Below, one piece after another: positions 15,513-34,427 of a stretch of DNA of 34,427 nucleotides. Made by a program: the position numbers and the translations under genes. The stretch is from the IMG/VR virus record IMGVR_UViG_3300020400_000019, positions 1-34,427 of that record. One strand, written 5' to 3'. Origin of the DNA: a virus (Duplodnaviria > Caudoviricetes). Below the pieces are notes generated by a model. The model ran no database searches and was not told the origin of the DNA. It was given only the letters and a program-made list of their open reading frames with translations. Every line of letters starts with the position of its first letter. The first letter of the stretch is position 1.

Positions 15513-16052
15513 ATGGCAGTAGATCCAGCATTAGTAGGCTTTGATGTAGTAAATACATTACAAGATACATTACTTAATTATGTAATGGCTAATAGAAGAA
15601 TGCAACAACAAGACAGACAGTTCAGAACTCAAATGGATTTTCAACGAGATCAATTAAAAGATAGTAGAGAAAGATTTGATATTACTACTGCTTTTAGAAC
15701 TAGAGCAGAACAAGATGCTTTAAATGCTCGTAAAGCTGATAAGGCTTTTGCATCTAGTTTATTAAGAGAAAAACAAAGTAAAGAAGAGTTTGCTGATTAT
15801 CAAAGAAAAATGAAAGAATATGCAAATATTAGAGAAGAAGGAGATTTTAATCCTTTTAAAAATGAAGAAGATTATATGGAAGAATTTAGGGAAATAACTC
15901 CTGAGTTTCCTGTTTATAGAGCAAATAAACTTCCTTCTTTTTATAGTGGTTTACCTAGCTTTGGCTTAGACTATTTATTACGCAGTGAAACTAATCCTGA
16001 GCAAATACTTTTTAATGCTCAGATGCAAAACTTAATACAAAAAGGACAATAA
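15513..16052 (+). CDS. Putative ejection protein (coiled coil)
   Basis: AGGAG RBS; Q/R/E-rich coiled coil, Cys-free. Confidence 0.5.
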   Translation: MAVDPALVGFDVVNTLQDTLLNYVMANRRMQQQDRQFRTQMDFQRDQLKDSRERFDITTAFRTRAEQDALNARKADKAFASSLLREKQSKEEFADYQRKMKEYANIREEGDFNPFKNEEDYMEEFREITPEFPVYRANKLPSFYSGLPSFGLDYLLRSETNPEQILFNAQMQNLIQKGQ

Positions 16053-16053
16053 A

Positions 16054-16494
16054 ATGGATCCAATGTTAGTACTACAATTAATAGATAATTATAATAGAAA
16101 CCCTCAAAGATACACAGATGAAGAAGCAGAGTTTATAGCTATGCTATCTAAACAAATGGGTGCAAGTTTTAAAAGAGAAGATAAATCTATTCGCAAAGGT
16201 TTGTTTGATCTTGTTGATACTGCTGTATTAGGTGCTATACCTAATACTTTAAGACCACGTTCTAGGGGTGAATCTGTTTATGGTGAAACAGGTATGGAAA
16301 AGTTTACTAGTGGTGCAGGTTCTTTACTTGGGTTAGCAGGTGGCTTAATAGGTGGATATGGTGCAGCAAGAGGAATTATAGGTTCTGGTGTACCACAACG
16401 TGCAGGTAGAGGTATCATCAATTATGGAAGAAATACTATGGGTAGAATGAATCCATTTTTAGGCATAGGTAATGTAGGTACTATTATAGGATAA
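16054..16494 (+). CDS. Putative ejection protein, paralogous to the N-terminus of the giant protein
   Basis: Shares V..L...Y...P...TD, G..FKR and PR..GE with aa ~9-85 of the next ORF; Gly-rich hydrophobic segment. Confidence 0.55.
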   Translation: MDPMLVLQLIDNYNRNPQRYTDEEAEFIAMLSKQMGASFKREDKSIRKGLFDLVDTAVLGAIPNTLRPRSRGESVYGETGMEKFTSGAGSLLGLAGGLIGGYGAARGIIGSGVPQRAGRGIINYGRNTMGRMNPFLGIGNVGTIIG

Positions 16495-19400
16495 TGGCAT
16501 CTCCTTATGAATCTTATAAAGTACGTGAGTTAGTAACAGCGTACCGATCAGATCCTACTATGTTTACAGATGATCAATTAGATCAACTGGAAGCATTAGC
16601 TTACGATAATGGAATAAACTTTAAACGTATTAATAGTGAGTTTAATCTAAATAGAGCTGTAAGACAGGCACAAGCAGGTTTTATAGAAGGGTTTAGTACC
16701 TTTGATTTAATACCTGAATCTCCTAGAAACACAGGAGAAGCTATCTTTAGACAGTTAGGACACCTTGCAGGATTTGCACCGGGTATATTAAAAGCTCCTG
16801 TAATGGGTCTATCTAAAATAGCACAAAGAGTAACTGGAAAGAAAACACGTAACCAGTTTACTGAATCTGTCTTAGAAGGTATTGGTGTTTTAGATAGATA
16901 TGCTGCACCTATGATAGCTAGTAGAGGAGCTAAGACTGCATTTAATGCTACAATAGATAAGGTGGGTGGAAGAACGTTAGAGTTTATGAAAAGAGGTTCT
17001 TCTGGTAGAGCTATTGCAGAAGAAGCTATTGGTTTAGGTACTGCAAGTGCCTTAAGCAACATTTGGAAAGGTGAAGATGCTATTATAGATGGGTTTATTG
17101 GTGGAGCAATAGCAGGTGGAGCGTTTGGCACTATAGGTAATTTTGCATCTATAGGTAATCGGTTAAGTGCTGGTAGAACACCCCAACAAATAGAAAGTGC
17201 TAATCAAGCATTACGTGGATTATTGGGTAGTGCCTTTCAAGGACTACCTTCTACATTAAGAAATGAACCTACAGAAATGCAGATATATAATTATTTGTTA
17301 GGTGGATTTTTTGGTTACAATGCTAGACCAGCAAAAGATATAGAAGCATCAAAGTGGTTATCTAAGAATAGAGACCCATCAGAAAGTTTTACTCCAGAAA
17401 GATCAAGTGATTGGAATACTATTAATAAAGAAGCTAGAGACTATATTACCTATGAGCACCCTATGGGATTCCAAAGATCTAATAATGAAACAGGTGGTAG
17501 CTCTGGAATAGCTCTTGGTTATTTAAAAAATCAGAATCCTAATCGTAATTATAGACAAGATGCTGAAACTCATTTTAAAAGGAATAATATAAATTATACT
17601 GAAAAAGACATTAATGACTTTTACAGAAACAAAGCAACTGAAGTATATCAAGCTAATGTAGAACGAGTACAAGATTCTATAGTGCTTTCTAAAAGCATAC
17701 CCAATCAAGAAATGGTAGACATGATGGATCCTGCTATCAAGCCTATTGTAGATTTAAACAACATTTCTAGAAACATTTTAAAGGCTAACAAAGACTACAA
17801 AACAAACTTAGAAGTTGGCGATATAATTGTAAAGACTGGTCAGTCTATAAATAAAGACGTTAATCAATTTATTAGTCAAATAAAGCAAAACTTTACTATA
17901 AATAAAAATATCGAAAAGAAACTAAAGAATTGGTATCATGAGTCTAGTAAAGTATTTCAACCAATGCCTTTAATGACTATTGATGGTAATAATATATCTG
18001 TAAAAGAAATAACTAAAGAAAGAATTAATAATGTAAGTATAGGTGAAAAAACTCCTGAACTTTTGCCAATACAAATAATACATCCTAAAGGTAATATTCA
18101 AATGATAACTCATGTTATCAAGGATAACATACCTGTTAAAATATTTAAACAGTCTAAAAATCCTGTTGAGCAAATAGAGTATGCATTGAATAAAAAAGAT
18201 TTAGGATTAATTAATTCTAAACTAGGTGAATTAGACTCGTATATATTTAGTGGAAATAAAGATAAGTTAACTGCAGTAAAAGCAAATTTTAGAGATGGTA
18301 ATTACACTATAAATGAAGTATTGGATGTATTAAGTAGAGGTAACGTAAGTAGATCAGAACTTCAAAATAAGTATGATAACTATGTTGCAAGAGAAAAAGA
18401 AATATTTGGTGACACACCTGCTACAGTAGAGTTAGCTCCAAGAAAGTTTATATCTAATATAATATATAGATTAGAACAGTCTAATTTACCATTTGAACAA
18501 GCATATAGGTTAATTGAGAAAGATAGTCCTTATGCTATTGATCCTGTAAACTTTAATAAACGTATACAATTATTATTGTCCAGAATGGAACCAATGCATA
18601 TATCTAGTTTTAAAGATGTACCTTTTAGTAATGAAGGTAAGGTTCAAAGAATATTAATTGTAAAAGATCCAGAAGTACCTTTTGAAGGTGGTTCTACTAT
18701 AAATAAAACTGACGGATCTCAAATGGTGTTGCCAGAAGTTTTAAAAGCAGAAGCAGAATTTATAGGATTAGATCCTAAAGTAACAGGTTCTAATAAGCCT
18801 GTTATTGTATTTAGAACAGAAAATGGTTTACTGGCAACTAAATCCAATGGTCAAGAAATGTTACCTGCTATGGAAAAGTTTGCTAGAGATAATAATATAC
18901 ATAGAATCTTTTTTGAGTCTTCTGTGAAACTTATGGACAACAATCGTCAGTTTATTACTGATTTAAAATACGATCCTAAAAAAGGAAGTTATTCAGCAGA
19001 TAATATAAGAACTATTGAGGTTCCTACAGAGGCTGTACAAATAAGTAGAAGCACCTATGAAAACTTACCTAAAGATGTAAATGGTACAACTATAGCGTTA
19101 CAAGCATATAATAATATGAATCTTGTACAAGGAGATAGAACGTTTTCAAAGCTATGGTTTGAACAGGTTATTGAACCTTCATTAAAAGGAACTACAGGTG
19201 CTAATGAATTAACATCTATTAAAGATTCTAAAGAGTTTATAAAAAAGTATGATGAACTAAATATGAACATAGAACATATGCCATATGAGTTCATGAAGCA
19301 AAAGCTATTAAAACAAAGACCAGATGATATATCCATATTTTTAGCAGATAGAATAATGAAGGCTGAACGTGAAGGACAGCTTAATGATCCAATGTCTGAA

Positions 19401-22400
19401 CGTATTGAATACGATAACGATAGTAATTTTAAAGATTTACATATACAAAATAATGAAATAGCAAAAGCTGTAGCTAATACATATATAGCTAGAAATACAT
19501 TGTCATTTGCTAACACAAACTATCATAATACATTACGTAAGTATTTTACTAGAAGAATTACTAATCCATTTATAGAAACAGGAATGAAAAGCTGGTTTAA
19601 AGGATTTATTGAACCAGAAGCTACACAATATATAGAGTTTGATCCGTTTAAAAGAGGTAATAGAACCATAGAAGAAGGAGAAGTATATCTTGACACAACT
19701 GTTAAACAAATGCCTGTGGTATTTGGGAACAAGAAATACAGTCTTGGCGAACTTTGGAACAAATATACTAGGGAATACTCCGATGGACTTTCCAAAGAAG
19801 TTCTTAAGCAGTATGATGATGCATTTACTTTCCTTGTTATACGTACACCTGCTGATTCAGTTAGTGGTGTGCGTGCATTACGTTTTCGTGGATGGACAGG
19901 ACAAAAAGGAGCTGGATCACTTATACATCCCAAAGACAAAGAAATGCTTGGAGGAGGAGATAATGATTCAGATAGTATGAAGATATTTCAAGGATTTAAA
20001 CCTGATCTATTAGAATACTATAAAAAGAACAAAGATGAACGTGCTAGATGGAGTACAGACAAACCTTATGTAGATAGATTAAATGAATTAGTACGTAATA
20101 AAAATATATCCAAAGAACTAGGAGAAGAACTATTAGATCCTTTTTATTTAATGTCTAGTGCACATAGAGTACATGCAGGGAGATATTCAAGCACTGGTAA
20201 AGATGGTTTAGGACTGGGATTAGCTAACGCTAATTATATGTTAAACTACTATGATTACATTAATTCTATTGGTGGTACATATAAATATCAGGGATTAGTT
20301 GTTAAGACTAAAGATAAATTTTCTCATAGATTTGCTTTAGATTTAAAAACTATGATTGTTAACAAGTCAGCAGATGCTAGTAAAGATCCTACTAAATCTG
20401 ATTATACTAAAGATCCTGATTTATTATTTGATGCTTTGTTTGAAGTGTCTTATAAAGGTAAACCATTAAATAGTGTAAAACTAAAAGGTCAAAACCCTAA
20501 TCAAAATCCATATACAAAATTTAATATGCTTATTAGTGGTAGCAATTTAGATGCAATAAAAAAGTCTATAAGACTAACTAAGCCTAATATTACAACATAT
20601 GAAACTGGCGAACCTGCTGCGATAGATATATTTCAGTACAAAAGAAATCTAAATGAAGTTAAGCAGCAAATGGATTCTATTAAAAAGGGTCAGGTTAATT
20701 TAGATATATATAGAAAACTGCAAGAGTCATTTGGTGACTCAATAGAGTTTGGTGGTATTAATAAAGTTCAACAAGCATTATACAGAAAGTCTAGAGACAA
20801 CTATATAAATAATCTTAGACAACAATATGAAGAGTTTCCTAAACAGTTTTTGGTAAAAAGTAATACATCTAAGTATTTAGAAAAACACTTTGATATACTG
20901 GCTAAAGAGTTGTCGTTTGAAACAACTAGTAACCATCAAAAGAATATGGCTACTGATCCTAATAAAGCATTGGATATTTTTGGTAAAGACATAGGACAGT
21001 ATGCAACTATTGAGCTATTAACAAAACAGTTTGGTGATATACAAAAGGCATTTTTAAATAAAGGTAAGAAAGTAAACTTAGTAGATGATGTTTATCCTAA
21101 GTTAAAAGAAGAAGCATTTGCTATAAAGGATACATTAAAAGTAAGAGACAATAAAGTAAGTAATGATTTAGATGGTCGTATAATGAATACAAGAACAAAG
21201 TTATCTAATATAGAAAAGTCTAATGGATTACAAGAAGGGTTACTTCAGGATTATTTTTCTTATTGGTTGTTAAGTCCTATACAAAGAAATCCTTCTCCAA
21301 CTAAAGTTGCTAGAACTGGTTATAGTAAAGATATACATGCTTCTAGAGCAATACCTATACAGGTAAAGAGAAACTTTTATAAAAAATTAGATGAGATATA
21401 CTTTGATGTATTAGGTGATAAACCACCGATAACAATAAAGTCTAAGAAGTTTAAAGACAGTGAGCTGTCAAATAATGTAGAAATAAATGAAGTATTAGAT
21501 ACTTCAGTAAATACAGGTGTATTAAAAGGATTAGCACTTACTAAAAAAGATTTAGCAGAAGTAAATGAGTTTAGTAAGTATATAAAAGATCATCCAATAT
21601 CTAAAGAAAACTTTAATGATTGGTTTACGCAAATGACGAGTCCTATTTTAGAAAGTAGAATCTTAGAAGGGCCTACTAGAGATGCTACAACTATTACATT
21701 GAAAGATGTTAAAGCATTAAACAATTATTTTAGGGAGTTACAGACTAAGAAGGGTTTGGGTGTAGGTCTTATTGATTATTACAGTTCTCCGATTACTACT
21801 AGTAGAAAACTAGAAGCTATGAATTTTCAAACTAAAGCCTTTAACATTAAGCAAAAGGTGTTAACAAAAGATGGATTAAAAGAAAAAAATGTACAGTATG
21901 TACTTAGTCCTATACTGTCTATAGCAAACTATATAAGAATGTCTGAAGCTGGTATTAATAAATACGAAGGTCGTAGAAAAGACATGCGTTTTAATCTTGA
22001 GAAAGAGTTAAATGAATTAGATACCAAGAAAGAAAAAATCTATATGGACAATATTATAGAGTTTAGAGAAGGCAGAAAAACGTTAGATCAATTAGATAAA
22101 TCTATTAATAAAGAAAAGTTTATTAAGCTTAATGAAGCTGTAACTGAGTTTAATAAAAACATGTGGGAATTTTGGGTTCCTACAAAAAATGCTGCAGGAA
22201 AAGAATATAATTGGAACACTATAGATGTAAATAATAATTATGGTGTGGTTAATAAATATATCAGGTATGATAAAAATGGCAGATTTAATCTAGAAAAATT
22301 TGAACAAGAAGTCATTATGGCTAAAAACCAAAGTGACAATATTATAAGACAAATAGGTATTGATGGTATTATGCGATATAGGTATGAATATCTATTAGAA

Positions 22401-24461
22401 AAGTCTATTGCTGGAAGCAAAAACAAAAAAGAAGCTAGAGAATTAGCTAGAAAGGAAAGTCCATTCTATCCTAGACGTAAACGTGATTATAATACGTATA
22501 TTCATCATAGCATACGTAATGTTCCAAAAAATATAAGAATAGAACAAGTAGAATGGATTAATAGAAATGCAGGTAAAATACCTAATAGAGTTCTAAGAGA
22601 ACTAACTATGGATAATGAGTTTTTTGAAATGAACGATAGAATAACTATTGATGCAGATTATAAAACTGCTTTTGAAAATTCTTCAACATCAATACCGGGT
22701 TCATTAAAAAAACGTGGAAATGATCCTATTCCATTTAAACGAGGTAGAGATTTATTTGACGATTATCAAAACTCATTGATAAAAGGTTATTTTAGAAATC
22801 TTATGAAGGTAAAAGCACAAAGTGATATAGATGCTTTGATGTCTAATATGAAAAATTATAAACCTTCAAAAAATGAAACTGCTCGTTTTAATAAAATGTA
22901 TAAAGGTCAAAGTATACCAGATAAATTAAGATACAAAAATTATTTAGATGTATGGGCAGACTTTGTAAGAAACTATGCAGAGTATAGCATGGGTTATCAA
23001 ACAAAGTTTAGTGATAAGATGATGACAGAACAAGGCAGAGACTTGTTGGCTTTGAATAAAAAGAACTTATTTTATACAACATCTGATCAAGTTATTGCCA
23101 ATCAATTAGAAAAACTATATCGTAGTAAACTTGGCGGTAGAGATAGTTTACCATTTGTAAACAACCTGCCTAAAGATCCTGCTGCTAGGCAGCCTTATTT
23201 ATATAATTTAATTAGGAATTTAGGAGCATCTGAGGCTAAGTATCAGCTATTGTCATTACTTGCTAATACAGGGTCATTTACTACTAATATATTTGGAGGT
23301 GGTACACTAGCAATAGGAAGTGCAGGTGTACGTAATTTTGTTGATTCATTTAACAATAAAACACTTGAAGCTGTTCTATTAAAAAATAGTAAAGGTGAAT
23401 ACACTACATTTTTAAATAATGGTAAACCTGTAAAAAATAGAAAAGGCATAGATAAATGGCTTGAAGAAAACGGATTCTTTGACAATTACATACAAAATGA
23501 ATTTGAATATAGACCTGAAGTAACAGCAAGATTAAAGAATGCTGGGGTAAATATAAAGAACTTATCTAGAGATTTAGTCGTAGCATTAAAATCTAAAAGA
23601 ACTGATAAGCAAGAAAGTGTTAATGATGTATTTAAAAGATATGGTATAAATGATATAATGCTAGAAGCAGGTGGTTTTTTTATGAAATCATCTGAACGTA
23701 TTAACAGAAAAAATGCATTTATTGCTCATGCACTACAAGCTGTTAGAGGTTTTGGAAAACAAGGTAGGGAAATGACACTAAATGACCCTTATGTATTTCA
23801 ACAAGCTATGAAAGGTATAGAAATGACACAGTTTTTATATCAAAATGCTTTTAGACCACCATTTATGGCTACAACAACTGGTAAGGTTTTAAACAGGTTT
23901 AAGTTATTTGCTTTTAACAGTGTACGAATACGTAAAGAGTTTTTTAGGCAAGCTAAAATGCAAGGCTTAAGACCTAATACAGAAGAGTATAAAAGATTTC
24001 AAGATACATTTCTTATTGATATAATGATGTATGGATTAGGTGCAGCATTTATGTTTAGTTTATTTGATACTACGTTACCACCACCATATGATTGGGTGCA
24101 GGCGTTAGCTGATTATACATTTGGAACAAAGCAGCAAAAAGAATTAGCATACTTTGGAGATCCTTTAGGCCCATTAAATGTTTTAAAACCACCCATTGCT
24201 AGAGTTCCTGAAGCATTTGGTGAACTAATTACTGGTAACTTTGATGATTTTACTGGATACACTATGTATACATTGTTGCCATTTGGTAGAGGTATACGAC
24301 AAGCTGTGCAATTATCCGATGACAGAGTAGGCAGAGGTCTTGAACGTGCTCCAGAAATACTGTTTAGGATACCCTACAATAAGTTTTTAAATAGACTTGA
24401 AAGAGCAAAAACAAAAAGAGAACGATTATCTTTTATAGATGAGCTACTAGAAGAATCCTAA
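16494..24461 (+). CDS. Giant internal virion protein containing a two-barrel RNA polymerase domain (putative virion RNAP)
   Basis: Ordered motifs TD740G, K768..K783, S810VK812, R1117TP, GGGD1156ND1158SD1160, G1235KDGLG, D1294ASKDP; Gly-rich hydrophobic N-terminus; C-terminal ERINR..AF...TQFLY....RP...G.....FK.F region like other large ejection proteins. Confidence 0.8.
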   Translation: MASPYESYKVRELVTAYRSDPTMFTDDQLDQLEALAYDNGINFKRINSEFNLNRAVRQAQAGFIEGFSTFDLIPESPRNTGEAIFRQLGHLAGFAPGILKAPVMGLSKIAQRVTGKKTRNQFTESVLEGIGVLDRYAAPMIASRGAKTAFNATIDKVGGRTLEFMKRGSSGRAIAEEAIGLGTASALSNIWKGEDAIIDGFIGGAIAGGAFGTIGNFASIGNRLSAGRTPQQIESANQALRGLLGSAFQGLPSTLRNEPTEMQIYNYLLGGFFGYNARPAKDIEASKWLSKNRDPSESFTPERSSDWNTINKEARDYITYEHPMGFQRSNNETGGSSGIALGYLKNQNPNRNYRQDAETHFKRNNINYTEKDINDFYRNKATEVYQANVERVQDSIVLSKSIPNQEMVDMMDPAIKPIVDLNNISRNILKANKDYKTNLEVGDIIVKTGQSINKDVNQFISQIKQNFTINKNIEKKLKNWYHESSKVFQPMPLMTIDGNNISVKEITKERINNVSIGEKTPELLPIQIIHPKGNIQMITHVIKDNIPVKIFKQSKNPVEQIEYALNKKDLGLINSKLGELDSYIFSGNKDKLTAVKANFRDGNYTINEVLDVLSRGNVSRSELQNKYDNYVAREKEIFGDTPATVELAPRKFISNIIYRLEQSNLPFEQAYRLIEKDSPYAIDPVNFNKRIQLLLSRMEPMHISSFKDVPFSNEGKVQRILIVKDPEVPFEGGSTINKTDGSQMVLPEVLKAEAEFIGLDPKVTGSNKPVIVFRTENGLLATKSNGQEMLPAMEKFARDNNIHRIFFESSVKLMDNNRQFITDLKYDPKKGSYSADNIRTIEVPTEAVQISRSTYENLPKDVNGTTIALQAYNNMNLVQGDRTFSKLWFEQVIEPSLKGTTGANELTSIKDSKEFIKKYDELNMNIEHMPYEFMKQKLLKQRPDDISIFLADRIMKAEREGQLNDPMSERIEYDNDSNFKDLHIQNNEIAKAVANTYIARNTLSFANTNYHNTLRKYFTRRITNPFIETGMKSWFKGFIEPEATQYIEFDPFKRGNRTIEEGEVYLDTTVKQMPVVFGNKKYSLGELWNKYTREYSDGLSKEVLKQYDDAFTFLVIRTPADSVSGVRALRFRGWTGQKGAGSLIHPKDKEMLGGGDNDSDSMKIFQGFKPDLLEYYKKNKDERARWSTDKPYVDRLNELVRNKNISKELGEELLDPFYLMSSAHRVHAGRYSSTGKDGLGLGLANANYMLNYYDYINSIGGTYKYQGLVVKTKDKFSHRFALDLKTMIVNKSADASKDPTKSDYTKDPDLLFDALFEVSYKGKPLNSVKLKGQNPNQNPYTKFNMLISGSNLDAIKKSIRLTKPNITTYETGEPAAIDIFQYKRNLNEVKQQMDSIKKGQVNLDIYRKLQESFGDSIEFGGINKVQQALYRKSRDNYINNLRQQYEEFPKQFLVKSNTSKYLEKHFDILAKELSFETTSNHQKNMATDPNKALDIFGKDIGQYATIELLTKQFGDIQKAFLNKGKKVNLVDDVYPKLKEEAFAIKDTLKVRDNKVSNDLDGRIMNTRTKLSNIEKSNGLQEGLLQDYFSYWLLSPIQRNPSPTKVARTGYSKDIHASRAIPIQVKRNFYKKLDEIYFDVLGDKPPITIKSKKFKDSELSNNVEINEVLDTSVNTGVLKGLALTKKDLAEVNEFSKYIKDHPISKENFNDWFTQMTSPILESRILEGPTRDATTITLKDVKALNNYFRELQTKKGLGVGLIDYYSSPITTSRKLEAMNFQTKAFNIKQKVLTKDGLKEKNVQYVLSPILSIANYIRMSEAGINKYEGRRKDMRFNLEKELNELDTKKEKIYMDNIIEFREGRKTLDQLDKSINKEKFIKLNEAVTEFNKNMWEFWVPTKNAAGKEYNWNTIDVNNNYGVVNKYIRYDKNGRFNLEKFEQEVIMAKNQSDNIIRQIGIDGIMRYRYEYLLEKSIAGSKNKKEARELARKESPFYPRRKRDYNTYIHHSIRNVPKNIRIEQVEWINRNAGKIPNRVLRELTMDNEFFEMNDRITIDADYKTAFENSSTSIPGSLKKRGNDPIPFKRGRDLFDDYQNSLIKGYFRNLMKVKAQSDIDALMSNMKNYKPSKNETARFNKMYKGQSIPDKLRYKNYLDVWADFVRNYAEYSMGYQTKFSDKMMTEQGRDLLALNKKNLFYTTSDQVIANQLEKLYRSKLGGRDSLPFVNNLPKDPAARQPYLYNLIRNLGASEAKYQLLSLLANTGSFTTNIFGGGTLAIGSAGVRNFVDSFNNKTLEAVLLKNSKGEYTTFLNNGKPVKNRKGIDKWLEENGFFDNYIQNEFEYRPEVTARLKNAGVNIKNLSRDLVVALKSKRTDKQESVNDVFKRYGINDIMLEAGGFFMKSSERINRKNAFIAHALQAVRGFGKQGREMTLNDPYVFQQAMKGIEMTQFLYQNAFRPPFMATTTGKVLNRFKLFAFNSVRIRKEFFRQAKMQGLRPNTEEYKRFQDTFLIDIMMYGLGAAFMFSLFDTTLPPPYDWVQALADYTFGTKQQKELAYFGDPLGPLNVLKPPIARVPEAFGELITGNFDDFTGYTMYTLLPFGRGIRQAVQLSDDRVGRGLERAPEILFRIPYNKFLNRLERAKTKRERLSFIDELLEES

Positions 24462-24495
24462 AAAAAACCCACGTAGGATAGACCTACGCAGGTTT
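24460..24495 (-). terminator. Intrinsic terminator ending the early arm at the convergence point
   Basis: - strand AAACCUGCGUAGG-UCUAU-CCUACGUGGGUUUUUUUU: 13-bp stem whose two G-U pairs form only on this strand, running into an 8-U tract. Confidence 0.85.
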
Positions 24496-26862: not shown

Positions 26863-27071
26863 CTATTTGCTACGTTAAATCCTATAAACAATCTTAATGG
26901 CATAAAACCTATATGAAACGCTATAGCATTTCTCATTGATTTTTCTTGCTGTATTGCTATACTAAACATGTTTATCAGAATTATCCTGTAACCTGTTACT
27001 GATTTTGTTGTGTCCTTCTTCTTGCTTAATAGTGTCATAGACAGTATGTCTAGAATCCTTACTGTTATCAT
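26850..27071 (-). CDS. Hypothetical protein
   Basis: AAGGA upstream; fills the gap but overlaps the upstream ORF by 110 nt. Confidence 0.4.
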   Translation of the reverse strand: MITVRILDILSMTLLSKKKDTTKSVTGYRIILINMFSIAIQQEKSMRNAIAFHIGFMPLRLFIGFNVANRWVL

Positions 27072-27204
27072 ACTCTTCCTTCTGATGCTTAAATATCATC
27101 GTAGTTGTTTCATTTATGTCATGATCATGCACAAAAACATAGGCTCCGTTACCTTCTATTTTTTGTACTTTATCATCTTTAATATGTATTTCTACTATTG
27201 CCAT
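26962..27204 (-). CDS. Hypothetical protein
   Basis: GGAGG RBS; starts 29 nt downstream of a 19-bp motif copy. Confidence 0.6.
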   Translation of the reverse strand: MAIVEIHIKDDKVQKIEGNGAYVFVHDHDINETTTMIFKHQKEEYDNSKDSRHTVYDTIKQEEGHNKISNRLQDNSDKHV

Positions 27205-27232
27205 AAAACCTCCGATATGTGGTTTATAGGGG

Positions 27233-27251
27233 CAAAGATAAAGGAATCAGT
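27233..27251 (-). promoter_or_regulatory. 19-bp conserved motif, copy 4 (ACTGATTCCTTTATCTTTG)
   Basis: 16/19 positions invariant among four intergenic copies; occupies the loop of a 10-bp inverted repeat (27225-27260). Confidence 0.75.
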
Positions 27252-27261
27252 GCCCCTATAA

Positions 27262-29106
27262 TTAGTTTCTCTTTGAGAATGTGAATGTCTCATAGTCGAA
27301 TTGCAATGCTAATTCAAACATAGATTCGTCACGTGCCTTCAAAGACGATACTGTTCTTAGTTTTGACTTTGGATTTCTAATAATATCAGGGTTCTCGAAT
27401 GCAATATACTGATCTGATTTCTGTTCTATTGCTGAATTACCTTTACCGCTATGCACATCAAGTTTCTGACCTTCGCTCAACCTTGTTGATGAATATTTAG
27501 AAATGTGATGTATTGCGATAACAATAATATCTAGATCCATAGCCATGTCTTTTAAGGCATTAGCTATTGTTTCCTGTCTTACAAGATCATCATTACGTAC
27601 ATACTTAGCAGGTACTCTGTCTATTGTGTCTACTACAACTATTTTTGCTTCAGAATCTTGTACTACATTAGGTAAATCCTGAATGTCTGGTGACTTGCAA
27701 GTAAGTTGTAAATGCTCAACAGATTTCTTGGCAGCTTCTTTAAGTTCTATATCTCGATTTTGGAATCCAAGCTCGATTTCGTATTTAGTCATACCAAGAC
27801 CTGCTTGTACAAAACGCCTGTTAATCGTATCCTCATCTACTTCTAGCGACATAAATAAACACTTCATATTTGTAATCCTTGATATAAGATATTGTACAAA
27901 TGCAGTTTTACCTAAACCAGTGTCACCTATAATTGTAACAAGCTGACCTGTCGTAAAGTAATGAGACTTTTTCATAAATGGAAATACTTCCTTAAGATCA
28001 AAGGAACGGTCTTCCCAGTCTGTTTCATAGTATTTAGCAAGATTGTCAATCATGCTCTCAGCATTAAGAATGTCAGCAGTATCATCTAAATCTTTGTAAC
28101 GATACTTAAAACATTTATTATCGCAGTAAGGCACAAGCGTAGGATGATTACAACCATGATTGTATTCTCTACGCATTTGATCTACTACGATACGATTAAC
28201 TTCTTCCATTGGTAATGGGTTATCCATCTGTTCCATGTATGCTCTAGCATTGTGTAAACATTGTTGTTTATTCATACCTAGCTTTTTATTCCAGATAGCT
28301 ACCAAAGCTTGAAGATGTAAGTGACGTTTCTTTTCTACGTACCCAGCATTGTATATATGCTGTGCACATGTAATGATTCTTGTAGTGGATGCATTAGTAT
28401 TTTCAAATACTTTACGTACTTCATTAGTATTCTTTCTACTTACATCCATTGGTTCCAAACCAACAATCATTTCATGATGTATCTTTCTGACTGTTTTGTT
28501 TTGTACAGTTTTAGCATAGTAAACAATATCATCATAGGACATACTGTCCAGTTGCTCCTCTGTAACTGGTACTTTGTATGTTCTTGATTTATTGTTAAAA
28601 CTAAAACCTGCACGTATTAGTCTTCTTGAGTCATAAATATGATCTATGGTTGTACCAAAATCACGCTGCATTGTACTACGAACTTGATAAGCAAGATCTT
28701 TACTCTTTTGTTCTTTAAATCCGTAGACATTTGCTAGATGTATGTGAAAACCAGTACCTGAAAACCATATATTGTAATGTTGTTTATCAATTCCTAGTTC
28801 TGTCAAAACAGATAAAACATCATTAACATTATTGATTGTCATTTGGTCTGCAGTCAATCTATCAGGTGATTTAGCATGGTCTATGTCGATAACCAGCTTA
28901 TCAACAGCTTGTATACCATCGTATCCGACAACAGTTTTATGTTCTTCTATATATGGTACAATATCCTCACCGTACAAATACATACTACGATAAATCTCTT
29001 TGCCGATATTGTCCATTACAAGCTGATTGAAAAGCGGTTCTTCTATAACTTGATTACGGTTACTAACATTAGCAATGGCATACTCTACGTACCATTTACT
29101 ATCCAT
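27262..29106 (-). CDS. AEP primase(-polymerase) fused to a DnaB-like SF4 helicase
   Basis: AEP motifs VIDID, FSGTGFHIH, D.IYD.RRL.R; Walker A GDTGLGKT, SLE, Walker B VVVD, GNSAIEQKSD, KAR. Confidence 0.88.
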   Translation of the reverse strand: MDSKWYVEYAIANVSNRNQVIEEPLFNQLVMDNIGKEIYRSMYLYGEDIVPYIEEHKTVVGYDGIQAVDKLVIDIDHAKSPDRLTADQMTINNVNDVLSVLTELGIDKQHYNIWFSGTGFHIHLANVYGFKEQKSKDLAYQVRSTMQRDFGTTIDHIYDSRRLIRAGFSFNNKSRTYKVPVTEEQLDSMSYDDIVYYAKTVQNKTVRKIHHEMIVGLEPMDVSRKNTNEVRKVFENTNASTTRIITCAQHIYNAGYVEKKRHLHLQALVAIWNKKLGMNKQQCLHNARAYMEQMDNPLPMEEVNRIVVDQMRREYNHGCNHPTLVPYCDNKCFKYRYKDLDDTADILNAESMIDNLAKYYETDWEDRSFDLKEVFPFMKKSHYFTTGQLVTIIGDTGLGKTAFVQYLISRITNMKCLFMSLEVDEDTINRRFVQAGLGMTKYEIELGFQNRDIELKEAAKKSVEHLQLTCKSPDIQDLPNVVQDSEAKIVVVDTIDRVPAKYVRNDDLVRQETIANALKDMAMDLDIIVIAIHHISKYSSTRLSEGQKLDVHSGKGNSAIEQKSDQYIAFENPDIIRNPKSKLRTVSSLKARDESMFELALQFDYETFTFSKRN

Positions 29107-29110
29107 ATTA

Positions 29111-29671
29111 TTACAGCTCTATTCCGTCAAGTTGTACTTCAGGCTTTGATTCTTTCTTTTTGACGTTTTCGCCAAAGTTAAAGTCTTCATCACTGCCATC
29201 TGAATCACTGTAGTTCTTGATATAGCCTTTATTTACACTGTCCATAACCATCTTTTTAAGTATACCATCTGCTGAACCAGCTTGTGCAACACGATCAAAG
29301 TTATTCCAGTAAGGTTTACCTGAATCTTTGAGCTTGTTTGTAGGATAAGAACACATCTTAATTTGCCTACCAAGACAATCTCTTAGCCATTCTTCTGGAA
29401 TACCATAGTCTGCTTGTACTGGTAGACCTCTTTTACCAAGTGCACACTCAAAGAACTCAGCAATCTTAAAAGCACTACCCCATGATTTACGATCATCAAG
29501 TGGTACTGTTTTATTAAAACTACCGAATATAGTTATCTGGTCTTCCCAGTCGTGTCTTACATTTGCAGTCAAGAACAAGTCTGGTACAAACTTCATCCAG
29601 TCTTGTTTTGCTTCGTATTGAACATCAACGCTAATAATTGTTGCTGTTCGTTCCATACCTCCTGCCATCAT
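29111..29671 (-). CDS. Putative single-stranded DNA-binding protein
   Basis: GGAG RBS; between the SSAP and the primase-helicase; beta-rich core with acidic tail (DSDGSDEDF). Confidence 0.55.
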   Translation of the reverse strand: MMAGGMERTATIISVDVQYEAKQDWMKFVPDLFLTANVRHDWEDQITIFGSFNKTVPLDDRKSWGSAFKIAEFFECALGKRGLPVQADYGIPEEWLRDCLGRQIKMCSYPTNKLKDSGKPYWNNFDRVAQAGSADGILKKMVMDSVNKGYIKNYSDSDGSDEDFNFGENVKKKESKPEVQLDGIEL

Positions 29672-30333
29672 TTAGTCTCCTTTACTTTTTTGTTTGTAGA
29701 TTCAGCTTTAAGTGTTTCTTCTAACACTTTTAACTGTGCATATTTTCCGACAACTTCATCATTAGATCTGTCTTTTTCTGCTAACCATTTATCTACTCCA
29801 GCATTTATTGACAAACCTGTTTTGGTTTTATGATTCTTAAACCATTTTGAGTTAGATAAACGTTTTAGCTTTACAGTATCTTCTGATAATGTTTTTACTT
29901 CACCTTTAGTGTTTTTTCTTAACTCACTAATGTGATTACGATTATCCATGCTGTCAGCATCTGCAGTATCGTCAATAGCAAATAAACCGTTACACGCATA
30001 CTTGCGTGCATATGATGACGTAGCACCTGTGATTTGACTATCATCCATACCTTTCTTAGATACAGATTCTCTAGCATAGCCATTAACTGATACTTCGTCA
30101 TTACCATCACCAAATGTTGCTGTAGCTTTGATGTAGTTACTACCACCAATGTTTACAATCTCATCTGAAACAATAAGATAACAACCAGTTTCATTGAGTA
30201 ATTGTTTTACACCTTGAAAAATGTCTGCAAGATTGCGATAGTTGTATTTACCGAAATCATTTCTATGACCTTTTTCGACTTTTAGTGATGTCTGAACTAT
30301 GTTCAGCTTTTCATGTATGTTCATATCTTTCAT
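29668..30333 (-). CDS. erf: ERF-family single-strand annealing protein
   Basis: NDFGKYNYR..DI and KKGMDDSQITGATSSYARKYA.NGLF.IDD signature; start moved to ATG 30333 behind AAGGGA. Confidence 0.88.
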   Translation of the reverse strand: MKDMNIHEKLNIVQTSLKVEKGHRNDFGKYNYRNLADIFQGVKQLLNETGCYLIVSDEIVNIGGSNYIKATATFGDGNDEVSVNGYARESVSKKGMDDSQITGATSSYARKYACNGLFAIDDTADADSMDNRNHISELRKNTKGEVKTLSEDTVKLKRLSNSKWFKNHKTKTGLSINAGVDKWLAEKDRSNDEVVGKYAQLKVLEETLKAESTNKKVKETK

Positions 30334-30454
30334 ATATTTCCCTTTTGTTATTATTAAATCTTCTGGGATGTTCATGGCGACCGTAATATCCATGTTTACG
30401 ACAAGTTGCGATCTTGCTCTGGCCTAGTCCATCCCAGTTTCTCTTATAAGTCTT

Positions 30455-30473
30455 CATAGATAAAGGAAGCAGT
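30455..30473 (-). promoter_or_regulatory. 19-bp conserved motif, copy 3 (ACTGCTTCCTTTATCTATG)
   Basis: Intergenic, upstream of the ERF-SSB-primase/helicase block. Confidence 0.75.
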
Positions 30474-30549
30474 GCCAATTATGGAGAATGAATGCGGAGT
30501 TCATACCTTTTCGAGAAGATACCTAACCGACACTGCTGTCCTATTTTAT

Positions 30550-31278
30550 TTAGCTAATACCAAACTCCTTTAGTGTCCTATTATGTAAAGTAATATGACG
30601 TTCAAGTATTTTGTTTGGTGGCGTGCTCTTCAGAGCTTCTGTACATGCATTGTATAATGACCACACATTCTGATCCATAAACTCAGAATAAGGTGGGTTA
30701 TTCCAATGACGTATAGCATCTGTAGCTTGTCTAGCACCAAAAGCTTGATAACCTAATGCTCTACCTATAAAGCTGTATGCATCATCATTGCTGATTTCTA
30801 CATCTTTCATAGATTCTGCATCTTTGATGATGTTTGCAAACTTATCTTTACTTTTGTAAAGAACACTAACCAGTTTGTCTTGTAAGTCATCAAAGACATT
30901 TTTGGTGTGTTTTCTCATGTAAGTAACCTCACCTGTGAAAGCCATGTTATCGCAAACAAATACACTAGCACCTGCACAAAAACCAATTGACATGCTTTTG
31001 TCATGACTGCTACGTATGCCTATTGCCTTACCCATTTCTTCGTTGCTTGGGTCTTTGTATTGCAGTAAGCCAAAGAATCGTTGCTCGTTTTTACTTACTG
31101 CTAGTTTTTGATCTACAAAATCTAAATCAAGTAGATCGTCACAGATACGTCTTGTATTCATTAGTAGATCTGTAAAAGCTACTGGTTCGTATGTATCTGT
31201 TTTTTCTGGTAATGGTATAGCTGTTAATTCAGCAATGTTTACTTCTTTACCACCACAATGTATCATCATACTACTCAT
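30550..31278 (-). CDS. DUF932/DUF945-like phage/plasmid protein
   Basis: RSSHDKSMS...GA.VFVCDN...RKHT and N.WSLYNA.TE motifs. Confidence 0.75.
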   Translation of the reverse strand: MSSMMIHCGGKEVNIAELTAIPLPEKTDTYEPVAFTDLLMNTRRICDDLLDLDFVDQKLAVSKNEQRFFGLLQYKDPSNEEMGKAIGIRSSHDKSMSIGFCAGASVFVCDNMAFTGEVTYMRKHTKNVFDDLQDKLVSVLYKSKDKFANIIKDAESMKDVEISNDDAYSFIGRALGYQAFGARQATDAIRHWNNPPYSEFMDQNVWSLYNACTEALKSTPPNKILERHITLHNRTLKEFGIS

Positions 31279-31550
31279 GTTAATTCCCCTTTTTGTTCTA
31301 ACATTATTTTATTATGATTATCTTCAAGTTGATCGCATAAATATACATATGCTTCACCCCAATGAAATCGCTCAATGCTATGAGCTTCATCAGGAGATAT
31401 GAAATATTTATTAGGGTACATTCTGTTACCGTATTTGTCTTCCTGTAGAATTTCTACAAAAGCACCATTAGGTGGTACTCTATTTGTTTTGACACTTATA
31501 CTACGTTGTCCAAACTGTCCCCAATTTATTTTATTAATCTTAATGCTCAT
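31275..31550 (-). CDS. Hypothetical protein
   Basis: ATGA overlaps on both sides. Confidence 0.65.
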   Translation of the reverse strand: MSIKINKINWGQFGQRSISVKTNRVPPNGAFVEILQEDKYGNRMYPNKYFISPDEAHSIERFHWGEAYVYLCDQLEDNHNKIMLEQKGELT

Positions 31551-31873
31551 GTTGGTTTTACATTCTCTTTTAGCCTTTCAGCTATTTCATCAAATTGCAA
31601 TAACTCATCATCGTTCATAGCTATTATCCAGTTTCTAAATCTCCCATCGTGTAATGAACCGGGTAAATTTCTATAACCAACTACTTCTGTTAAGTCACCT
31701 TGCAGATCTAAAACTTCATTATCTACCTCGTAATAAGAATGTGCAAGTACTCCTAATGCACAATAACCATTACAATTTTTATCATACATAGTTCCGTCAG
31801 TAGGTTCATAAGATCCATCTGTAAGTGCTGTTGTCCATGTGTCTAACAGATCTTTAGGTAAGTTGTATTCCAT
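31547..31873 (-). CDS. Phage hypothetical protein
   Basis: AGGAG RBS; W..AL..G.Y...YC.LGV...MND....F.EIA pattern recalled from phage early proteins. Confidence 0.7.
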   Translation of the reverse strand: MEYNLPKDLLDTWTTALTDGSYEPTDGTMYDKNCNGYCALGVLAHSYYEVDNEVLDLQGDLTEVVGYRNLPGSLHDGRFRNWIIAMNDDELLQFDEIAERLKENVKPT

Positions 31874-31882
31874 TTTATTCTC

Positions 31883-32083
31883 CTATGATTTTTTAAGACT
31901 TATATTGAACATGTTTAATACTTTCTCATGCTCATCTTCTAGTTTTCTAATATACTCTTTTTCTTGTTCATCAGTTACTTCATAGACTCTATATGCACGT
32001 AATGCATCCATTACAGTTTTTACTTCAATAGCTGTATCAAATGCTATAGCTGGTCTAGTATCTGGTGCAGTAGTTTGTTTCAT
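31883..32083 (-). CDS. Hypothetical protein
   Basis: AAGGA RBS. Confidence 0.65.
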   Translation of the reverse strand: MKQTTAPDTRPAIAFDTAIEVKTVMDALRAYRVYEVTDEQEKEYIRKLEDEHEKVLNMFNISLKKS

Positions 32084-32100
32084 ATTTTCCTTTATGTTAC

Positions 32101-32216
32101 GTGATTACCAGAGCCACTTTGTTTTGTCTTTGTCGCATGCTATCCACGCAGACCCTCGGTGTGTTCCGAGATACCCTTAACGCACATGTTAAGTTGTTGG
32201 CGACTCTGGTTCTCAC
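32101..32216 (-). ncRNA. Candidate structured RNA (closing stem plus three hairpins)
   Basis: 11-bp closing stem ACCAGAGUCGC/GUGGCUCUGGU enclosing CUUAAC/GUUAAG, CUCGG/CCGAG and GUC-GCGUG/CAUGC-GAC hairpins; G-U pairs favour the - strand. Confidence 0.55.
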
Positions 32217-32381
32217 TGTTTTATTAGTACAAGTATAGATAACGCACTTGACTAATGACTACTGACCAAGCCACGTTTTAGGTGACGATGTTCAGCCATC
32301 TTTTTCAACCTCTAAACCCCTGTCGTATTTCTACGCTTTAGGAGATACTTTTTTACTAGAGGGTTTTACTAACCAATGGAG

Positions 32382-32645
32382 TTATTCCATCTCTGTAACG
32401 ATTAACTGTGATATGCCTAACTTACTGCTTGCATTCATGATTGTTTGTACCTTTGCTGTGCTGCAGTTGTCATGAGTACGTATTGTTGCACCGTCTACGA
32501 TAACTTCGACCTTGTATCGTCTACGATCCAGTACTACGTCTGTAGCTTTGCTTGCTATTTTTGATGATATATTTAGTATACCATTAGCAGTCATAGTTAC
32601 ATAACTCAATAATCGTGTGAATTTTAGTGCTGATGTTGTGTTCAT
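32382..32645 (-). CDS. Hypothetical protein
   Basis: Start moved to ATG 32645 (ATGA overlap with the upstream stop). Confidence 0.6.
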   Translation of the reverse strand: MNTTSALKFTRLLSYVTMTANGILNISSKIASKATDVVLDRRRYKVEVIVDGATIRTHDNCSTAKVQTIMNASSKLGISQLIVTEME

Positions 32646-32860
32646 TCGTTGATAGCCTCTTGTAATTTGTAGTAATTTAATTTCATTAACCAACTATCTA
32701 TAAGTTTATGTACCATACTATCCGACAGTTTGTGTTCTTCTTGAATATGAATTAAACCTTGAGCTACAAGATCATCCAAAAATGGATGTATTAACTCTGC
32801 CATTTGGTCAAAATAGCCATCGTTATCATATTCTTCAATGTTATCTAATTCTGAATGCAT
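32642..32860 (-). CDS. Hypothetical acidic protein
   Basis: GGAGG RBS. Confidence 0.65.
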   Translation of the reverse strand: MHSELDNIEEYDNDGYFDQMAELIHPFLDDLVAQGLIHIQEEHKLSDSMVHKLIDSWLMKLNYYKLQEAINE

Positions 32861-33041
32861 TGATACCCTCCGTTATTATAAGACTCTTATGTATTTCACT
32901 AAGTTTTTTTTGTATTTCATTAAGCCACATCAACGATGTTTTGTTTAAGTTGTAATCATTTCTTAGATCCGTATCTACATCATCAATCATCATCATAACT
33001 TGCTCAAGATCGCTGACTGCTTTATTACTTTTTACTGGCAT
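32841..33041 (-). CDS. Hypothetical helical protein
   Basis: Start moved to ATG 33041 behind AAGGAG. Confidence 0.6.
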   Translation of the reverse strand: MPVKSNKAVSDLEQVMMMIDDVDTDLRNDYNLNKTSLMWLNEIQKKLSEIHKSLIITEGINAFRIR

Positions 33042-33282
33042 AAGTTCTCCTTTCTGCAATTTGTGAATCAATGTATGATTCTACTTTAGATTCTAAATCA
33101 TCTAATTCACAACGCTCTATTGATGGTTTGTAAATACCTGTTTCTTCATAACTTACAAAACAGTCAGGACAAACTGGCATTTCACGATGTACACGTACCA
33201 GTTCTCCTGATAGTGGATGTTTTTTGTAGTCTGTGACTTCCTCAAAATGAATCACAGCATTCGGATGATGAACGCATTTCAT
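33025..33282 (-). CDS. Small putative zinc-ribbon protein
   Basis: AGGAG RBS; CVHH...CPDC. Confidence 0.65.
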   Translation of the reverse strand: MKCVHHPNAVIHFEEVTDYKKHPLSGELVRVHREMPVCPDCFVSYEETGIYKPSIERCELDDLESKVESYIDSQIAERRTYASKK

Positions 33283-33310
33283 AGTAAACTCCTACGTTAA
33301 TTATAAATAG

Positions 33311-33329
33311 CAGAGATTAAGGAAACAGT
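33311..33329 (-). promoter_or_regulatory. 19-bp conserved motif, copy 2 (ACTGTTTCCTTAATCTCTG)
   Basis: Intergenic; terminal G is 29 nt before the next ATG. Confidence 0.75.
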
Positions 33330-33331
33330 AG

Positions 33332-33461
33332 ACTGTTGAAGTGCTTGTTGTTACGTTGTTTTACCCTCTCGAATGGTCATAAACTATGAATATTTATCCA
33401 CATAATCAAGCCATAAGACTGTCTATTTGTTTGTATTACACAACTGTTACAGTGCTTGTTG
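33332..33461. repeat. Direct repeat ACTGTT(GA/AC)AGTGCTTGTTG at 33332-33350 and 33443-33461
   Basis: 17/19 identical, 111 bp apart, non-coding. Confidence 0.7.
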
Positions 33462-33531
33462 CTCCACTTTAAAAAATAAAGTTAGTTGACCTACTTAAAA
33501 ATATAATGGATGCGAAGCATTCCTTTTTAGT

Positions 33532-33563
33532 AAAAGACTACCCAAGATATACTCAGGTAGTCT
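33532..33563 (-). terminator. Intrinsic terminator after the 110-aa early gene
   Basis: - strand AGACUACCUGAG-UAUAU-CUUGGGUAGUCU-UUU; 12-bp stem with G-U pairs and a short U tract. Confidence 0.65.
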
Positions 33564-33577
33564 AATACTATCAAACG

Positions 33578-33910
33578 TTAGTCGTTCAATGGTCTTGCGA
33601 TCATGAACCGTACTGAGTTCTTATCCTTAGAAGGCATTTCAGTGTCTTCAAGAATACGCAAACCGTTTGGAATCAGTTGTTCTTCTATGAGGGTGTCTAG
33701 CTCTTCAGCAGATCCCTCTTCTAGTTTAACCCAGACGTTGAAGAACATCTCATCATCTGTGCAGTTTACGATGTCCGATATTGTGGCATTATGATTATGC
33801 CAAACACCATCTTTGTCCTGCTTAGATGATTGAAGCCAAAGAAATGATTCTTTAGCATTATCCTGTATGGTTTGACGAACGCTCTTTAATATGTTGTTCA
33901 GTTTCTTCAT
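33578..33910 (-). CDS. Hypothetical early protein
   Basis: AAGGGG RBS; alone between motif copy 1 and a terminator. Confidence 0.7.
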   Translation of the reverse strand: MKKLNNILKSVRQTIQDNAKESFLWLQSSKQDKDGVWHNHNATISDIVNCTDDEMFFNVWVKLEEGSAEELDTLIEEQLIPNGLRILEDTEMPSKDKNSVRFMIARPLND

Positions 33911-33953
33911 GATTAACCCCTTTTAGGTTATTGGTTAGTATTGGCAGAGTTGC

Positions 33954-33972
33954 CAAAGATTAAGGAAGCAGT
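33954..33972 (-). promoter_or_regulatory. 19-bp conserved motif, copy 1 (ACTGCTTCCTTAATCTTTG)
   Basis: Begins at the last base of the nuclease stop codon; its end overlaps a TTGGCA-ACTC-TGCCAA hairpin. Confidence 0.75.
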
Positions 33973-34400
33973 TACTTAGGCAGTATGTAGTAGTCTGTAG
34001 CAAATCTTCTTTTGTTCTGATTCTTAAAACTACCATTACTTTCTGCTTTTATTGGATCTACGAAGGCAAACTCTTTAGAATAAAGCTTACCTTTTAGTTC
34101 TTCAGGTTGTGGGTAGAATATTACATTATCTCCACTACCTTCAAGTGGTACAGCTATATAATCACAATGATTAGGTGTTACTTTTACCTTCAAAGAATGA
34201 CCATATGATGTGTCTGACATCCTTGTGCTGTACTTTACTTGTATAGACTTCCAATTATTGATTAGGGTTCTCTTGCCCCATTTCTTGGGTTTGCAGACAA
34301 CCATGTCTATTCCTAGATCTACGTCTGGTCTGCTAACAATGTACCCATTCTTTAAGAATAGATTGGCTACTTTGTTTTCTCCTATCATACCTTGTACCAT
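33972..34400 (-). CDS. PD-(D/E)XK nuclease (homing-endonuclease-like)
   Basis: G.IGE..VA..FL..GY.VS.P..D.G.D.V....IQVK; frame stays open to the window end, so the true start may lie outside. Confidence 0.7.
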   Translation of the reverse strand: MVQGMIGENKVANLFLKNGYIVSRPDVDLGIDMVVCKPKKWGKRTLINNWKSIQVKYSTRMSDTSYGHSLKVKVTPNHCDYIAVPLEGSGDNVIFYPQPEELKGKLYSKEFAFVDPIKAESNGSFKNQNKRRFATDYYILPK

Positions 34401-34427
34401 TGTTCCTACATCTAATGTAGTGGTACT

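Follow-up and report, generated by a model that had tools for sequence, protein, structure and literature searches.

How a phage that probably brings its own RNA polymerase into the cell might mark its early genes for transcription is the question raised by the 34.4-kb record of an uncultured phage, IMGVR_UViG_3300020400_000019, analysed here over its whole length of 34,427 nucleotides (hereafter the window). Its plus-strand structural module ends in an open reading frame (ORF) of 2655 codons and converges on a minus-strand early arm, which carries the genes for a primase-helicase, an ERF protein, a DUF932 protein, a resolvase-like protein and several small ORFs. A first-pass annotation, made from the letters of the sequence, had noticed four copies of a 19-base motif in this arm and had read them as T7-style promoters of an injected phage polymerase. 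The evidence gathered here indicates that the motif is a genuine cis-element shared across the family, which most likely serves as promoter for an injected two-barrel polymerase and is often fused to a terminator. The reading that the motif copies are promoters of the polymerase encoded by the 2655-codon ORF, many internal copies also providing a terminator with its 3′ arm and U-tract, is given a probability of roughly 0.7.

An early-strand motif in the window and its relatives

The four copies described initially were found exactly and all on the minus strand (Table 1), with 16 of the 19 positions invariant and variation restricted to positions 5, 12 and 17. In 100 shuffles, with matches allowed up to 3 mismatches, a mean of 0.51 matches was obtained and five were never reached (0/100); the fifth match in the real sequence, at 941-959, has 3 mismatches, lies within a structural gene and is at chance level. 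When the window was scanned with a weight matrix (≥12 bits), just the four copies were recovered, confirming the absence of the motif from the structural arm. The spacing between the terminal G and the start codon that follows was likewise reproduced, at 44, 29, 122 and 29 nt, the third value running to the ATG at 30333 at which the homologues start (the longest-ORF start, at 30393, gives 62 nt). The description of the copies as intergenic holds in general, except that the 33954-33972 copy takes in the final base of the stop codon ahead of it. A scan for sigma-70 promoters returned 30 sites against 48 expected.

The exact pattern was present in 62 IMG/VR loci, which overlap and are not genome counts; 38 of them encode homologues of window proteins, and at least two copies were found in 36 of those 38. 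The other 24 loci, each with one copy and no homologue of window proteins, were treated as chance occurrences. Four complete relatives carry 6, 6, 6 and 5 sites (≥14 bits); every one of them lies in the early arm and on the early strand, and the structural arm has no site. In one of these relatives, G024 (45.6 kb), the copy farthest upstream stands ahead of the first genuine early ORF, with a divergent late gene facing it, the only earlier ORF being a 43-codon call of the ORF caller that overlaps the copy itself. Moreover, in 184 loci whose early genes were used to set the orientation, 134 non-redundant sites (≥18 bits) fell on the early strand versus 2 on the opposite one; the matrix was built from close-clade sites, which makes the count partly circular, though not the asymmetry. 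The scan across relatives that the first-pass annotation had proposed found the motif confined to the early strand and early arm in four of four complete genomes.

Among 77 representative contexts, T7, C9, T10, A13 and T14 were invariant, C8 and T16 were present in 76, T18 in 73, G19 in 61 and T17 in 23. A Shine-Dalgarno (SD)-like sequence with an ATG followed within 80 nt in 52 of the 77, at a median of 30 nt, and the motif usually lies 17-49 nt ahead of an SD-led start, so that a separate promoter would have little room in a median of just 30 nt. Several of the contexts with no SD and ATG nearby head structured non-coding modules.

The early arms of 23 more distant records, with about 26-37% polymerase identity, were searched by de novo discovery under a zero-or-one-occurrence-per-sequence (ZOOPS) model, which was used because unconstrained expectation maximisation collapsed onto base composition. 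Discovery was clearly above three shuffles in G002, G004, G005, G006, G013, G015, G016, G018, G019, G020, G022 and G023a, and marginal in G023b. Each distant lineage presented its own upstream box together with a common T-n-T-n-T-purine end: at 72 anchored sites of 11 distant genomes, T14 was found in 67, T16 in 67, T18 in 69 and a purine at position 19 in 56, with T15 in 45, T17 in 27 and A13 in 20, the lineage-box anchors having been picked after inspection and two of them including A13.

A two-barrel polymerase as the candidate reader

The polymerase invoked by the first-pass annotation was borne out as an enzyme of the gp66/QDE-1 type, by its fold and its invariant catalytic motif. ORF 16494-24461 had no match in Pfam or PHROG, none in PDB sequences (phmmer, hmmsearch) and no tblastn match among 50,697 phage records; its family consists of proteins of 2.6-3.2 thousand residues (39 matches, 171 representatives). 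R1117, P1119, D1156, D1158 and D1160 are invariant in 38 sequences and also in a 64-row core alignment, giving the DxDxD catalytic motif with an upstream R-x-P that defines single-chain two-barrel enzymes. The structure model of residues 721-1350, built from 64 sequences, reached a mean confidence (pLDDT) of 89, and its top Foldseek match was phi14:2 gp66 (6VR4, E 7.8e-7), followed mainly by QDE-1 and RDR2. VIA comparisons of the model gave Z 18.5 with QDE-1 (root-mean-square deviation 5.6, 406 aligned), Z 10.5 with 6VR4 (deviation 5.3, 497 aligned), Z 12.3 with gp64 and Z 9.9 with gp96 (8H2M). The model aligns full-length to QDE-1, RDR2, gp64 and 6VR4, with both double-psi barrels in one chain; on this modelled fold, the ORF is a single-chain two-barrel polymerase of the gp66/QDE-1 type, and it is presumably catalytically active.

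No second polymerase and no helix-turn-helix (HTH) or sigma domain was detected in the 33 window proteins and 20 further proteins scanned, nor any T7-type single-subunit RNA polymerase (RNAP) among them, and complete G024 has no unassigned ORF of that size. The catalytic motif is DNDSD in the window and mostly DKDSD or DKDAD in the family, with a minority of DxDID, and it departs from the crAss-like motif DFDxD with Ile or Val at the fourth position (bioRxiv 10.1101/2020.03.07.982082). The link to crAss-like (Crassvirales) RNAPs is by fold only, no sequence similarity to the described members having been detected. A GTDB scan returned one locus, a phage-like contig in a metagenome-assembled genome with 27% polymerase identity, which is uninformative on the host of this phage. 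Four polymerase homologues (P0011, P0017, P0018 and P0037) carry a precomputed PF13532 domain, which we take to be an AlkB-type 2OG-Fe(II) oxygenase.

In one quartet of relatives, the motif switches with a polymerase swap. G015 and G016 share 99% identity in the primase and 48% in the polymerase, and their motif differs at orthologous sites; in G015 and G018 (primase 92%, polymerase 93%) the motif agrees, and that of G014 differs from both the G015/G018 and the G016 types. In the polymerase alignment, 13 same-motif lineages agree at 358 columns; 9 of these columns are changed in three or more of the four switched lineages, and 4 of these 9 fall in residues 833-861 (p 0.013; matched by 2/300 random sets). 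These residues are a candidate specificity segment, a lead from a post hoc test on aligned sequences. Separately, comparison of window positions 15513-24461 with G024 revealed an exchange of the polymerase gene, along with the putative ejection genes beside it, between phages that are nearly identical elsewhere (polymerase 53%, primase 99%).

Several results weigh against assigning the motif to this polymerase. Within the G014-G018 quartet, motif type also goes together with several other genes. The motif is nearly unchanged between G024 and G025, whose primases are 99% and polymerases 55% identical, and between G027 and L159 and between G010 and G009, with polymerase identities within 45-55%. 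In partial Mantel tests on 24 hand-curated genomes, motif distance followed the primase (r=0.41, p=0.001) more than the polymerase (r=0.18, p=0.054), a pattern that could arise if specificity lies in a small segment or if something else reads the motif. ZOOPS discovery was not clearly above shuffles in G001, G007, G012, G014 and G017, and in G003 it picked the SD sequence instead; the elements of G008-G010 largely resemble ordinary terminators and have opposite-strand matches too (4 vs 6 in G008). The polymerase is probably packaged in the virion and injected, judging by its place as the last gene of the structural module. Three candidate +1 positions (G19, N17 and A13) remain, and the end of the motif resembles a host promoter box, as discussed below. 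The original T7-style promoter reading is thus partly supported, by the confinement to the early strand and arm in complete relatives, the copy ahead of the first early gene, the SD spacing and the change between lineages; global co-evolution of motif and polymerase is not supported.

Start site, RNA structures and other possible readers

In the mechanism proposed, the polymerase would read the 19-base motif directly, at the head of early gene blocks on one strand. Positions about 6-13 would form a lineage-specific recognition box and the T14-n-T16-n-T18-purine19 end the melting and initiation region, with initiation at or just ahead of G19. At many internal copies, an upstream complementary arm would turn the transcribed motif into the 3′ stem and U-tract of an intrinsic terminator, so that the RNA from upstream would finish at the starting point of the next one.

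The first-pass annotation had suggested the terminal G as +1. A hairpin follows the motif in 33 of the 77 contexts, and in 20 its outer G-C pair is formed at G19 (shuffle mean 2.2, maximum 6, 200 shuffles). Since 16 of these 20 hairpins pair T18 too and 9 pair position 17, G19 is one of three candidates; two more hairpins have a C17-G pair. G19 is the foremost of them, at slightly under even odds: conservation stops there, distant clades keep the purine, and the cores of the hairpins start at this position. A13 is a rather unlikely but arguable start, being invariant in the near clades, with hairpins extending upstream of G19 and the upstream sequences of phage P23-45 ending at TTCCTTTA. A start at N17 or T18 is doubtful; N17 matches the hairpin boundary, yet it is often a pyrimidine. 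Hairpin extension past G19 could also be explained by read-through RNA.

An unlikely alternative is that the host polymerase reads the motif, with a -7 box of the Bacteroidota type in positions 12-19, preceded in positions 1-11 by an upstream element or a phage-activator site. The first-pass annotation had called the motif unlike Bacteroidetes promoters, which does not apply to positions 12-19: their sequence is T/A-A-T-Y-T-N-T-G, with an exact TAnnTTTG in the 27233 copy. Across the 77 contexts the fit extends to A13 (77), T16 (76), T18 (73) and G19 (61), and fails at position 17, with T in just 23, and the early arm is tracked by the motif better than the polymerase is. On the other side, the -7 box spans -12 to -5 (PMC9723704), which would place +1 at about position 24, inside the loops of the G19 hairpins, and the strong SD use of the phage is unlike that described there for Bacteroidota. 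Moreover, no conserved -33 block was found in the 45 nt upstream of 63 sites, A13 is kept in just 20 of 72 distant-clade sites, and the late arm carries no copies.

Similarly improbable is that another phage protein, such as an early-arm repressor, an activator or a specificity factor, binds the motif and that the polymerase itself is not the reader. In favour of such a reader, the motif tracks the ancestry of the early arm, motif type and the orthologue of ORF 33578-33910 go together in the quartet (91% vs 33% and 51%), and phi14:2 gp66 showed no promoter motif and transcribed denatured DNA (bioRxiv 10.1101/2020.03.07.982082). The motif is, on the other hand, non-palindromic and strictly co-oriented, the scanned proteins hold no HTH or sigma domain, the first copy must function before any early protein exists, and the homologues of ORF 33578-33910 vary from 37% to 100% identity among same-motif phages.

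Many copies also form predicted terminator-like RNA stems. In 24 of the 77 contexts an upstream arm, separated by a variable loop, pairs strongly with the motif, and these copies have the GC-containing stem and U-rich tract of intrinsic terminators, as do 17 of 17 variants of the DUF932 site, in which positions 1-5 pair in all 17 and positions 6-9 in 14-16, with compensatory changes. Many orthologues of the 33311 copy have a full upstream complementary arm and are terminator-like. The armed copies look like intrinsic terminators built over the motif. There is little likelihood, however, of a role in RNA only, as a sequence-conserved terminator, pause or processing site on transcripts that begin near the genome end. 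Besides the armed copies and the compensated DUF932 stem, the classic hairpin with a U-run often seen at distant-clade copies speaks for such a role, as does the 26-nt sequence-conserved terminator motif present in P23-45; against it, 53 of the 77 contexts have no strong upstream arm, most first copies barely pair (though those of G009 do), the first copy has no co-directional gene upstream, the early arm ends in an ordinary terminator that lacks the motif, and a terminator 20-40 nt ahead of each start leaves a promoter no room. In fact, identical motif sequences occur in unlike RNA contexts, namely in a hairpin loop, in a 3′ arm or unpaired, and this conservation of one sequence across different contexts favours a DNA-level reading. 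The first-pass annotation had counted an RNA-level site as evidence against a promoter; many copies do form terminator-like stems, which are compatible with one. A boxA-like reading was dropped, because the consensus can be fitted only by inserting 2 nt (a 2-nt insertion) and the fit does not hold from clade to clade.

Table 1. Positions of the motif copies, the polymerase and the associated features in the window.
Feature	Position	Strand	Remark
Single-chain two-barrel RNA polymerase (predicted), 2655 aa, last gene of the structural module	16494..24461	+	Only polymerase candidate found
Putative catalytic region, R1117-x-P1119 to D1156-x-D1158-x-D1160 (DNDSD)	19842..19973	+	Family-invariant
Polymerase residues 833-861, candidate promoter-specificity segment	18990..19076	+	Post hoc covariation with motif type
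Ordinary terminator hairpin	24465..24495		Convergence of early and structural arms; lacks the motif
GC-rich stem enclosing the 27233 copy	27225..27260	-	In relatives the motif itself folds into a hairpin and T's follow (terminator-like)
Motif copy, candidate promoter for ORF 26962-27204 and following genes	27233..27251	-	Behind the primase-helicase stop
Structured module of ~105 nt right behind the motif, candidate non-coding RNA	30346..30454	-	15 predicted pairs, 4 with compensatory changes (8 sequences)
Motif copy	30455..30473	-	Behind the DUF932 gene, ahead of the ERF / 186-aa ORF / primase-helicase block
Conserved RNA stem, motif positions 1-9 as 3′ arm, then U-rich tail	30460..30545	-	Compensatory changes
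Motif copy, candidate promoter for ORF 33025-33282	33311..33329	-	Upstream complementary arm degenerate
Hairpin whose outer G-C pair involves motif G19 and which continues to position 17; candidate 5′ stem-loop	33941..33956	-	Variable in loop and stem among relatives
Motif copy, candidate promoter for ORF 33578-33910	33954..33972	-	Third of six copies in complete relatives

Further structured RNAs were predicted in the early arm. The module at 30346-30454 has no Rfam match and recurs, with 70-100% identity, at other places in the early arms of distant relatives; the Rfam scan as a whole returned nothing at gathering level, bar one tRNA in G027. The region 30460-30545 is a multi-stem RNA whose inner hairpin loop CUCCGCA is kept in 22 variants. 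Modules behind some motif copies (in L138 after 8252, L155 and G013) contain CCGATGA...GAAA, with no Rfam gathering match, which we take to be reminiscent of a hammerhead core. In L251 (17861-17939, minus strand) and in G027, a tRNA gene ends right before a motif copy. RNA data were contigs of three metatranscriptome runs of one study, with small word shares, in which starts, strand and level are not readable; the X1 contig at 27010-27213, ending 20 nt past the 27233 copy, was not counted for this reason. The ~300-nt intergenic region 32084-32381 (minus strand) is predicted to be highly structured, has contigs in runs X1 and X4 and is a possible small RNA; the part that adjoins the downstream gene is conserved in close relatives.

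Other observations concern the genome layout. ORF 33972-34427 (minus strand), with a weak DUF4365 match in G024, is possibly a nuclease gene inserted between motif copies, and several relatives do not have it. No DNA polymerase-sized ORF was seen in complete G024, despite its primase-helicase and ERF. A pair of AATCC(T/C/A)TAC sequences, at 38467 and 38917 in G024, lies about 450-500 bp apart at the early/late divergence and at the same place in most relatives; the copies are kept even where the promoter motif differs, and they are a candidate genome-end, terminal-repeat or packaging signal.

Comparison with known systems

How gp66-type virion polymerases, structural relatives of the eukaryotic RNA interference polymerases, choose their start sites can be approached through this phage family. 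It offers a concrete 19-mer, several natural variants of it, a segment that may set specificity and a terminator fused to the promoter; therefore, the question becomes testable in vitro, on synthetic templates and with no host. A tentative extension is that a gp66-type polymerase alone recognises a short promoter, that the family consists of orthogonal polymerase-promoter pairs with specificity at residues about 833-861, and that the promoter doubles as the preceding terminator. If the enzyme does initiate alone, this would be an orthogonal transcription system independent of both sigma factors and T7-type enzymes. No described promoter for gp66-type or crAss-like polymerases, nor for this phage group, was found in the literature, subscription papers and bioRxiv supplements being outside view.

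T7-class promoters are contiguous elements of about 20 bp, strand-specific, lineage-specific and devoid of a -35 box, and the motif resembles them in all these respects; unlike them, it is limited to early and replication genes, and its candidate reader is a two-barrel, not a right-hand polymerase. Each copy of the N4 virion RNAP promoter has an invariable inverted repeat directly ahead of +1, unlike the motif described here, with its upstream arm in just 24 of 77 contexts and its variable loop. Bacteroidota sigma-A promoters have a -33 TTTG box, and the motif differs from them in its ten conserved bases directly upstream of the box-like end, in the lack of a -33 box, in SD usage and in the loss of A13 in distant clades. 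The likeness is to the sigma-A -7 box TAnnTTTG (-12 to -5; PMC9723704), which positions 12-19 fit save for 17.

Phi14:2 gp66 (6VR4; bioRxiv 10.1101/2020.03.07.982082), the top Foldseek match, is likewise a giant single-chain two-barrel enzyme that ends the structural module and converges on an opposite replication arm. No sequence similarity to it was detected, its catalytic motif is DFDID rather than DNDSD or DKDSD, and the genomes described here are of about 45 kb. A common motif is present here, in contrast to the phi14:2 gp66 early transcripts, for which no detectable common upstream motif is reported.

The first-pass annotation had held that no sequence-defined promoter was well established for this class of polymerase. 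This has to be corrected, since AT-rich pre-early promoters have already been proposed for gp96, the virion two-barrel RNAP of Thermus phage P23-45, by means of cappable-seq and ChIP-seq (PMC10770324; bioRxiv 10.1101/2022.12.01.518664). Unlike gp96, the polymerase described here is a free-standing protein of 2655 residues in a podovirus-like phage, not fused to a tape measure and with no second polymerase found. The upstream sequences listed for P23-45 mostly end in ...TTCCTTTA, while six more conserved bases follow here, and many of its mRNAs are leaderless, unlike the SD-led leaders of ~30 nt in this family. Of the TTATTCCTTTA-type core of P23-45, the motif has TTCCTTTA but no conserved TTA ahead of it, and the two may not be in the same register to +1. 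The two systems have in common, in addition to this 8-mer and the fold relation to gp96 (8H2M, Z 9.9), a contiguous, pyrimidine-rich, non-sigma motif that heads each first gene, is co-oriented with it and is overlapped by terminators, several gp96 promoters overlapping terminator ends in P23-45 as well (PMC10770324, Supplementary Data 1).

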